Of a stretch of 53,342 nucleotides of DNA, positions 33,547-33,585 are shown piece after piece. Made by a program: the position numbers and the translations under genes. The notes under the pieces were generated by a model, which saw nothing but the letters and a program-made list of their open reading frames with translations, was not told where the DNA came from and ran no database searches. Every line of letters starts with the position of its first letter. Positions within the stretch are counted from its first letter, which is position 1. The DNA comes from Candidatus Parcubacteria bacterium (GTDB taxonomy: Bacteria; Patescibacteriota; Minisyncoccia; Phycocordibacterales; UBA5272), in assembly GCA_039796775.1 (NCBI GenBank), contig JBDKJD010000005.1, forward strand, positions 1 through 53,342. The letters run 5' to 3'.

Positions 33547-33585
33547 TTACTAGCCACTAACTTACTAACCACTAATCACTAACAT
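33547..33585 (+). repeat. ACTAA-containing heptamer tract abutting the atpD ATG
   Basis: The tract reads ttactagccactaacttactaaccactaatcactaacat, followed directly by ATG. ACTA recurs at spacings of 7, 8, 7 and 7 nt. No SD is present. Confidence 0.7.

Follow-up and report, generated by a model that had tools for sequence, protein, structure and literature searches.

What are the tandem heptamers that stand directly before start codons in this genome, and do they serve translation there? A first-pass annotation of the 53,342-nt contig JBDKJD010000005.1 (Candidatus Parcubacteria bacterium, assembly GCA_039796775.1; this whole stretch is called the window hereafter) had drawn attention to runs of 7-nt units in front of ten plus-strand genes, among them a tract at 33547–33585 upstream of atpD, and had proposed that they take the place of Shine-Dalgarno (SD) leaders. 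The answer that we favor, and to which we give about an even chance of being right, is that the arrays are heptanucleotide repeats produced by slippage, of the class of the short tandemly repeated repetitive (STRR) sequences and the long simple sequence repeats (LSSRs), and that the copies adjacent to start codons act as passive, unstructured leaders devoid of an SD motif.

The periodicity itself is clear-cut. All ten tracts are present where the annotation had placed them, and Tandem Repeats Finder returned 19 period-7 rows in the window, with period-14 higher-order units also present. A stringent lag scan (3-unit window, at least 80% match) found nine tracts at lag 7, none at lags 6 and 8–12 and none in shuffled sequences; a relaxed scan (at least 67% match) found 19 lag-7 tracts for 0.5 expected, and almost none at lags 8–11, with zero at lags 9–11. 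The autocorrelation of the intergenic DNA peaks at lag 7 (0.339) and again at lag 14 (0.334), compared to about 0.28 at other lags, with a further peak at lag 21, and the lag-7 signal vanishes when the arrays are masked. The arrays occupy 16% of the intergenic DNA and occur in 17 of 54 spacers; coding sequence accounts for 189 of their 967 bases in a window that is 88% coding, which makes them mainly non-coding.

Misassembly does not explain the arrays: 12.8 kb that include the atpD, atpC and smc tracts are 100% identical in a Logan assembly made independently. Note that two k=31 Logan contigs of the same strain (L162 and L163, from SRR35185531) stop exactly 30 nt inside the perfect ACTAGCC, CCAGTAA and AGACAAT arrays, their ends corresponding to positions 50564, 53245 and 3976 of the window, so that the copy number of perfect arrays longer than 30 nt is uncertain. 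We considered that these breaks might reflect copy-number polymorphism and rejected the idea, as they are an effect of assembly at k=31. Exact-protein look-ups for strain variation returned the same strain only (one Logan sample, 100% identical).

The annotation had tied the arrangement to start codons. This restriction does not hold: arrays are also found at stop codons, in convergent spacers, as inverted pairs and inside coding sequence. This range of positions (5′ ends, 3′ ends, convergent spacers, inverted pairs and in-frame loops), together with the uniqueness of period 7, supports a generic repeat process of fast turnover. The arrays are as follows, in plus-strand coordinates.

318–348 (+): (ACTACAA) array, 3 nt past the 3′ end of a minus-strand gene.
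2811–2845 (+): 5′ array of five ACTAnnA units, ending 5 nt before the gap ATG (2851).
3947–3991 (+): (AGACAAT)x6.4, encoding the last gap codons and the TAG stop (3967–3969); inverted partner of 4353–4395, across the gene for a 23S rRNA intervening-sequence (23S-IVS) protein.
4358–4388 (+): (TGTCTAW)-type array that covers both the rpiB ATG (4375) and the stop codon of the preceding gene for the 23S-IVS protein, 82% complementary to 3958–3995.
5040–5069 (+): (AGCTAAR) array in the rpiB–rpe spacer, 58 nt before the rpe ATG.
5090–5124 (+): 5′ array of five CACTAAG-type units, ending 3 nt before the rpe ATG (5128) and containing a TACACT box 6 nt before that ATG.
7774–7803 (+): (AGTAACY) array between convergent genes, immediately 3′ of a GC-rich hairpin; it has the 13-mer AACCAGTAACTAT in common with the malic-enzyme array.
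10686–10719 (+): 5′ array of TAACTAT/TAACCAG units, also of period 14, with 2 nt between it and the malic-enzyme ATG (10722).
14365–14395 (+): (AGACAAY) array in frame in tgt, inside an insertion of about 22 residues relative to solved Tgt structures; a single out-of-frame TAG remains.
18237–18311 (+): purine-rich 3′ array of TAGAGTA type, whose first unit holds the uvrB TAG stop.
20298–20328 (+): 3′ array of TAGAACA units in a convergent spacer; its first TAG is the stop of an mnmA-like gene.
29912–29939 (+): 5′ array of four units, 8 nt short of the atpE ATG (29948) and preceded at a distance of 5 nt by a TATATT box.
30170–30227 (+): inverted pair (TTAGCNT)/(GCTAAAW) filling the atpE–atpF spacer (hairpin of −23 kcal/mol, z −3.7), ending 8–9 nt before the atpF ATG.
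33547–33585 (+): five YYACTAR units, one of them 8 nt long, abutting the atpD ATG (33586); this is the tract around which the annotation was written.
34969–35031 (+): a degenerate (34969–35004) and a clear (35005–35031, GTAACYN) array, ending 0–4 nt before the atpC ATG (35036).
35450–35493 (+): 3′ array of TAGAAYR units starting at the atpC TAG stop, with a perfect 26-bp terminator palindrome (35523–35577) downstream.
36974–37009 (+): 5′ array (AAAAGCT/AATAGCT)x5, 3–4 nt short of the smc ATG (37013) and preceded at a distance of 5 nt by a TGnTACACT box.
48034–48135 (+): inverted pair (AGCTTTT)/(AGCYAAR) between the KH-protein gene and trmD, flanking a GC-rich hairpin (48071–48091); the whole region folds at −43 kcal/mol.
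48393–48449 (+): array of the (AAAAGCT) family in frame in trmD, encoding KKIESKNKKLKANSQKLKA, a segment that solved TrmD structures lack; CAA stands at the position of the in-frame TAA.
48865–48896 (+): AT-rich array overlapping the trmD stop.
50557–50593 (+): perfect (ACTAGCC)x5.3, 4 nt short of the rarA ATG (50598) and preceded at a distance of 7 nt by a TACACT box.
53099–53146 (+): 3′ array of TAGAATR units giving the last codons and the stop of an RF2-like gene; the in-frame unit has CAG, not TAG.
53216–53342 (+): perfect (CCAGTAA)x18 or more, cut off by the end of the window, with its first unit 6 nt downstream of a TATACT box.

As the annotation had reported, the unit sequence varies from locus to locus while the period of 7 is kept; at least four unrelated unit families coexist within these 53 kb. 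In uvrB, the mnmA-like gene, atpC, the RF2-like gene and gap, the stop codon is the exact starting point of an array of the purine-rich class (units TAGAAYA/TAGAGTA and AGACAAT; 48% A, 24% G, 8% C), and two of these arrays lie in convergent spacers; the C-terminus of the gap product (...IDNRQ*) is encoded by the AGACAAT family. Within genes, arrays have given rise to loop insertions in two tRNA-modification enzymes, KKIESKNKKLKANSQKLKA in TrmD and ETADNRQETTDE in Tgt, and the stop positions that fall in frame are altered, from TAA to CAA in trmD and from TAG to CAG in prfB, the RF2-like gene. Both inverted pairs of the window noted at atpF and upstream of trmD fold as hairpins, the latter around a GC-rich hairpin. 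Separately, a 357-nt gene between gap and rpiB, encoding a 23S-IVS/bAvd-like four-helix protein, is bracketed by inverted arrays (3939–3995 and 4353–4395; 38 nt, 82% complementary) and could be an inserted cassette. We also considered a mobile cassette defined by two inverted pairs lying 350–357 nt apart, one flanking this gene and the other spanning the trmD start; the match in spacing looks coincidental.

At the start codons, nine of the ten tracts end 0–9 nt before the ATG and thus agree with the description of the annotation, whereas the rpiB tract straddles its ATG (the other gaps are 5 nt for gap, 3 for rpe, 2 for malic enzyme, 8 for atpE, 8 for atpF, 0 for atpD, 0 for atpC, 4 for smc and 4 for rarA). 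For the eight tracts with free space around them, placement near the ATG is non-random (combined p=3.5e-5), in a sample that is biased because the tracts were picked for abutting starts. None of the ten leaders contains AGGA, GGAG or GAGG, or an AGGAGG-like motif 4–13 nt from the start codon, as had been claimed. The further claim, that the tracts replace the SD motif and anticorrelate with it, finds no support: SD motifs precede 0 of the 10 tract genes and 9 of the 48 others (Fisher p=0.33). They are rare across the window (9 of 58 genes, all orphans among those tested), and the atpD leaders of array-free relatives are likewise SD-less and AT-rich. The AGGAG-like motifs that the annotation had assigned to orphan or GC-rich genes were confirmed, with six tested products matching no Pfam family, but two of the genes are minus-strand mini-open reading frames (mini-ORFs) of 22 and 51 codons.

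Strong AGGAG-type SD motifs precede the starts at 12861, 42087 and 24902 on the plus strand and at 25739, 26361, 21005, 16123 and 19167 on the minus strand. They are almost confined to orphan genes without a Pfam family, two of which are GC-rich (0.51–0.52), and to the two mini-ORFs, which encode a 22-aa hydrophobic peptide (16123, minus strand, overlapping the uvrB start) and a 51-aa product (19167, minus strand). These SD-bearing genes may be foreign or lineage-specific. The GC-rich orphan gene at 12861–13967 contains a 33-nt tandem repeat (13745–13815; 2.2 copies, 94% match).

A different element does precede many genes. About 24 of the 58 genes have a −10-like box 4–11 nt before the start codon, mostly TATACT, TATAGT or TAGAAT and often with an upstream TG. 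The spacing peaks sharply at 6–10 nt, a distance that points to leaderless mRNAs and suggests that many mRNAs of this organism are of this type. Examples of such boxes lie at 5835–5850, 10636–10655 (minus strand), 43042–43061 and 47265–47284. A generic sigma-70 promoter scan gave no enrichment over shuffled sequences (19 vs 19.4; 18 vs 23.8) and was not used. Six of 25 arrays start 3–8 nt after a −10-like box (p=0.007). Five of these, at atpE, atpC, smc and rarA and the CCAGTAA array, start where transcription would be expected to begin; if it does begin there, they would be transcribed from their first unit; the atpC 'box' may itself be a degenerate repeat unit.

Several features of the arrays are strand-specific and fit a role as an RNA leader. 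On the sense strand, the ten 5′ arrays consist of 40% A, 23% C, 9% G and 27% T, compared to 15% G in other leaders; the arrays overall have C>G, while both the non-array intergenic DNA and the window as a whole are skewed G>C. The triplets ATG, GTG and TTG occur 4 times in the 5′ arrays on the sense strand and 19 times on the antisense strand (background, 0.052 per nt). The sense RNA is unfolded and its complement folds, with −4.7 vs −18.2 kcal/mol for the ACTAGCC array and −8.6 vs −51.6 kcal/mol for the CCAGTAA array, and the start region is slightly more accessible in tract genes (0.65 vs 0.57, p=0.04). One suggestion of the annotation, an unstructured, A-rich leader for SD-independent initiation, fits the low G content, the scarcity of start triplets and the unfolded sense RNA.

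Under the slippage reading, 7-nt (sometimes 14-nt) units would arise by slipped-strand duplication, and arrays that form hairpin arms may have been copied by template switching. Arrays persist in DNA that needs no sequence-specific signal, which here means most spacers: because most genes lack an SD motif and many have a leaderless-type box, the spacer is free up to the AUG, and arrays pile up against gene boundaries. The 5′ subset would provide a single-stranded, G-poor leader RNA without start codons that keeps the initiation region open, and such a leader could allow SD-independent loading of ribosomes, either de novo or after termination on the upstream cistron. It would be a permissive spacer and not a specific binding site.

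Related genomes bear on this reading in several ways. Array-rich relatives carry other units (loci L004, L005, L016, L102, L089, L007 and L073, also L069 and L095), including the stop-free AATGCAA and AGAAGAC. The closeness to gene boundaries is replicated in 30 related loci: of their 35 arrays, 12 occupy the start-proximal tenth of the spacer, 8 the tenth next to the upstream stop and only 3 the central 40%. The closest relatives (L001, with 80% atpD identity, L085 and L011) have atp spacers of 1–30 nt and no arrays, which shows that the arrays are dispensable. Across atp operons, arrays favor the B–E and G–D junctions (14/43 vs 6/54 elsewhere, p=0.012, a comparison confounded by spacer length); it is suggestive that arrays at these junctions precede the higher-copy c and beta subunits. 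Perfect triplets of window units were found in 15, 11 and 8 IMG/VR contigs and letter-permuted controls in 8 and 9, with fewer than 0.1 contigs expected for a random 21-mer (estimated from collection size). Since the permuted controls occur too, heptamer arrays of arbitrary sequence are common and the units of the window are not favored. For the same reason we rejected the idea of units favored across phyla, based on CAGT and CTAG cores common with STRR and TAACTGA repeats; TAACTGA alone stands out. Two IMG/VR contigs (L173 and L174, GC 0.57) are dense in heptamer arrays (ATCAGTR/TACTGAT), with about 19 per 10 kb, most of which form inverted pairs.

Several observations weigh against slippage and passive leaders as a full account. 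First, families recur at unlinked loci in one orientation and exact 9–13-mers are common to several loci, which local slippage alone does not predict: similar units pair in the same orientation at unlinked loci 28 times, compared to 8.6 +/- 2.8 after letter shuffling, and exact repeats include AACCAGTAACTAT at 7777, 7791 and 10694, GCTAAAAGC at four loci and TAGAACATAGA at two. Second, variation within arrays is concentrated at particular unit positions (pooled p=0.009), which hints at a conserved core and hence a specific reader. Third, 5′ and 3′ arrays differ in families and composition. Fourth, the arrays of relatives are often inverted pairs that fill spacers (z −3 to −15), that is, they are structured, the opposite of an open leader. 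Finally, the ten genes all lie on the plus strand of a single replichore and none of 13 minus-strand genes has a start-abutting array; in such a mostly plus-strand window, orientation relative to transcription is inseparable from orientation relative to replication.

Some of these observations are what one would expect if the arrays were recognized, one core every 7 nt, by an oligomeric RNA-binding protein or by a factor associated with the ribosome, which would control initiation, antitermination or mRNA stability. What look like conserved cores alternate with variable spacers (ACTA-N3, AGCTAA plus one nucleotide and, in 3′ arrays, TAG-N4), families recur across loci in one orientation and are position-specific, and a GC-rich hairpin lies between the members of some pairs, much as the hut terminator stem lies between HutP sites I and II (PMC2425495). 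Binding of S1, Csp or CsrA has also been proposed by MacGregor for TAACTGA repeats (PMC4679880). However, at least four unrelated families in 53 kb, with others in relatives, would demand several readers or a very relaxed one in a small genome. The arrays are moreover dispensable in the closest relatives and occur in frame inside genes, and the protein profiles of the window (20 proteins against Pfam, 4 against NCBIfam) revealed no candidate reader and nothing HutP- or TRAP-like. We therefore consider a dedicated reader unlikely.

To the same low degree we credit a position-specific 'heptad code', in which A/C-rich (CASTARC)n arrays before AUGs and purine-rich (UAG-N4)n arrays at stops would be read once per 7 nt, either by the ribosome (for example through S1 or through rRNA outside the anti-SD) or by an oligomeric RNA-binding protein. 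Such a code would direct SD-independent loading at selected cistrons, for example those of the high-stoichiometry atp subunits, and would define 3′ ends. If true, it would be a previously unrecognized initiation and termination signal of Patescibacteria.

The inverted pairs raise the possibility that the arrays are primarily arms of intergenic hairpins (terminators, sites for RNase III or other processing, or mRNA stabilizers) and that single arrays are decayed halves. In relatives, spacer arrays are indeed mostly inverted pairs that fold far better than shuffled sequences, and of the two pairs in the window (atpF, trmD) one extends a terminator-like GC hairpin. Yet for most arrays of the window no inverted counterpart lies within 500 nt, the RNA of their sense strand stays essentially open, and the probable terminators are separate perfect palindromes (35523–35577 and 27317–27359); we find this origin improbable.

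The window contains long perfect or near-perfect palindromes (35523–35577, 27317–27359, 36425–36469 and 21034–21079). Two of them lie between convergent genes and are probably bidirectional terminators, and 36425–36469 is a perfectly symmetric divergent promoter region with TATAGC/TATACT boxes for both flanking genes. Outside the window, locus L069 (4200–4342, a Chthonomonadaceae metagenome-assembled genome (MAG)) has two inverted (GGTAGAC)n arrays that pair perfectly over 39 bp into a hairpin (−89 kcal/mol, z −15) just 5′ of a gene start, so that heptamer-array hairpins are not limited to Patescibacteria.

The embedded stop codons had led the annotation to suggest a translational insulator: sense stops in three frames would end arriving ribosomes before the ATG or act as a fail-safe, thereby insulating cistrons or positioning re-initiation. 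Stop codons are indeed abundant, with TAA or TAG in 45 of 55 sense units (82%, compared to 32% of random intergenic heptamers), a density 2.5 times that of the background. The 3′ arrays start exactly at the stop codon and add TAGs in the other frames, and all three frames are closed in 14 of 25 arrays as opposed to 12% of random 35-nt intergenic segments. The sense strand is not special, however. The antisense strand also has a stop in 45 of 55 units, TAA and TAG occur at 0.124 per nt on the sense and 0.119 per nt on the antisense strand, and all three frames are closed by 7 of the ten 5′ arrays on the antisense strand and by 6 on the sense strand. A stop on the sense strand thus finds no support as the selected property, and the statement of the annotation that three units close every frame is correct for six tracts, the other four leaving a frame open. 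Furthermore, the upstream cistrons end 33–244 nt before the arrays, and relatives use stop-free units. An insulator accordingly has only a slim chance of being the explanation.

The symmetry of the stop enrichment follows from TA-containing cores (CTAG, CTAA/TTAG and TAGA). Under the slippage reading, the stops would be a by-product of such cores (CTAG, CTAA, TTAG), and a filter may act in addition: arrays that close the frame can adjoin or overlap the end of an ORF without lengthening the protein. A filter against extending or disrupting an ORF would favor frame-closing units and account for arrays overlapping the ends of ORFs.

Heptads of 7 bp, whether direct or inverted, serve the omega repressor as binding sites. 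A role of the arrays at the DNA level, as operator-like heptads for a cooperative DNA-binding protein, as cruciform or other structural elements or as phase-variable tracts, would account for the coexistence of direct and inverted arrangements, the partly palindromic cores (CTAG, AGCT) and the arrays at or just 3′ of −10-like boxes, but it is the least credible of all, given the strong strand asymmetry of the 5′ arrays in composition and RNA foldability, the many unit families, the arrays at 3′ ends and inside genes, the housekeeping nature of the affected genes and the fact that a change of 7 nt in a leader shifts neither reading frame nor promoter spacing and so provides no on/off switch.

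As to the genomic context, the window has a GC content of 40% and a positive GC skew throughout. Pfam profiles confirmed gap, the 23S-IVS-type four-helix protein, rpiB, rpe, malic enzyme, atpF, atpD and atpC, as well as smc, rarA, tgt, uvrB, the mnmA-like gene and trmD, and NCBIfam added S16, the KH protein and the RF2-like factor. Pfam thus backs nine of the ten gene names given by the annotation, the tenth, atpE, being assigned only because its 72-aa translation resembles a c subunit and because it lies between atpB and atpF. The atp genes form one contiguous operon in the order BEFHAGDC. The best identity of the atpD product is 80% in a genome collection and 78% in a metagenome collection, the nearest matches being MAGs labelled Saccharibacteria, Falkowbacteria, Minisyncoccia or 'Patescibacteria group'; at no more than 80% and 78% identity in the respective collections, orthologous spacers cannot be aligned.

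The host uses the standard genetic code, and TGA is never in frame within conserved genes. An alternative code with TGA as a sense codon was considered and rejected on this ground and on that of the RF2 homologue encoded, although TGA ends only 4 of 57 genes (29 end with TAA and 24 with TAG). This rarity of TGA stops contrasts with the presence of an RF2-like release factor gene in the window (52245–53129); its product scores 335 bits with TIGR00020, below the cut-off, and about 65 N-terminal residues seem to be missing.

A scan of the whole window at the Rfam gathering threshold detected no known RNA family, and ARAGORN no tRNA. At 49008–49279 (plus strand) lies a tRNA-like gene that both programs missed and that an insert of about 195 nt seems to interrupt. 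Its 5′ side comprises the acceptor strand and D arm (gccaaga tagctcagttggtagagca), its anticodon-stem halves read cttcc...ggaag, and its 3′ side comprises the T arm and acceptor strand (cgcgggttcgattcccgc tcttggc); the T arm alone scores, as a tmRNA fragment (E=1e-5).

How do the arrays compare with known systems? In the STRR class of heterocystous cyanobacteria, each genome has a few unit families, whose tandem heptamers are scattered mainly over intergenic DNA, also close to promoters and start codons. The arrays described here resemble this class in that a few heptamer families occupy many loci of one genome, but their host is not a cyanobacterium, as judged from the Patescibacteria-type MAGs nearest in atpD and from the BEFHAGDC order of the atp operon; dimers of the STRR1–3 units (CCCCAGT, TTGGTCA, CAACAGT) are absent. 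Translational leaders poor in G and rich in A and C, such as the TMV omega leader and CA-rich enhancers, are unstructured, contain short direct repeats and support SD-independent initiation. Those are single engineered or viral leaders, and the likeness to them is one of sequence features only. The arrays differ from phase-variable contingency simple sequence repeats, in which the gain or loss of a perfect unit switches a reading frame or promoter spacing, since the perfect arrays lie in leaders and 3′ regions and the in-frame arrays of trmD and tgt are degenerate. They also differ from REP/REPIN elements, which form one conserved family of palindromes of 20–40 nt that often occur as inverted doublets, since the units are 7 nt long, belong to several families and mostly lack an inverted partner.

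LSSRs have units of 5–11 nt, of which heptanucleotides are the commonest class, show a sporadic phylogenetic spread, are mostly non-coding and are attributed to polymerase slippage (Mrazek et al. 2007, as summarized in PMC4679880). The arrays of the window have the length and the non-coding location of this class; in that summary, the survey defines a statistical class without any start or stop arrangement, and Patescibacteria are not among the LSSR-rich genomes. HutP and TRAP are oligomeric antiterminator or attenuator proteins that recognize repeated triplets in RNA. In the HutP system, XAG triplets are spaced 7 nt apart (U498, U505, U512) and two clusters flank a GC-rich terminator stem (PMC2425495). 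The 3′ arrays of (TAG-N4)n type, like those on either side of the hairpin at 48071–48091, recall this HutP/TRAP layout, a resemblance that we treat as a lead only: HutP recognizes 3+3 triplets at one locus, as opposed to dozens of arrays with varied units here.

The function of heptanucleotide repeats has been an open question since the cyanobacterial STRR and again for Beggiatoaceae with their TAACTGA repeats. It is sharpened by a Patescibacteria-type genome with minimal gene content, in which conserved genes are almost devoid of SD motifs, many genes have leaderless-type boxes and a G-poor array class at starts is separate from a purine-rich one at stops, and the array-free close relatives offer a natural comparison with and without arrays at the same operon junctions. 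If the 5′ arrays affect initiation, they would show how SD-less internal cistrons are translated in a large uncultured radiation; otherwise they illustrate how constraints of frame and structure filter the products of slippage. Our literature search found nothing relevant on heptamer repeats or leaderless translation in the candidate phyla radiation/Patescibacteria. On the practical side, arrays of this kind fragment short-read assemblies and create spurious ORF extensions and insertions.

The closest precedent is that of the TAACTGA repeats of marine Beggiatoaceae and some Cyanobacteria and Bacteroidetes: 7-nt direct repeats in 2–6 copies with stop-bearing units, mostly intergenic and forward, ending about 1 nt before start codons in spacers where SD motifs are rare, some overlapping ORF ends or lying within ORFs, with no predicted RNA structure; their function is unknown, and translational regulation has been proposed (MacGregor 2015, PMC4679880). 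Heptamer repeats near start codons have also been noted in Nostoc (bioRxiv 10.1101/2022.06.06.494920), and the start-abutting arrangement is therefore not new, contrary to what the annotation had supposed. In IMG/VR, (TAACTGA)x3 occurs in 107 contigs (loci L215–L294), compared to 8–15 for other heptamer triplets; the window and the scanned loci L001–L163 contain no TAACTGA dimer. Like those repeats, the 5′ arrays are forward, end 0–9 nt from the ATG and lack SD motifs in all ten leaders, a feature not distinguishable from the background of the window. Unlike them, with their one dominant unit, they comprise at least four families, coexist with a stop-codon class and leaderless-type boxes, and have relatives in which inverted pairs are common. 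What is new here is the Patescibacteria-type host, the division of families between starts and stops, the in-frame insertions in trmD and tgt and the leaderless-type context.

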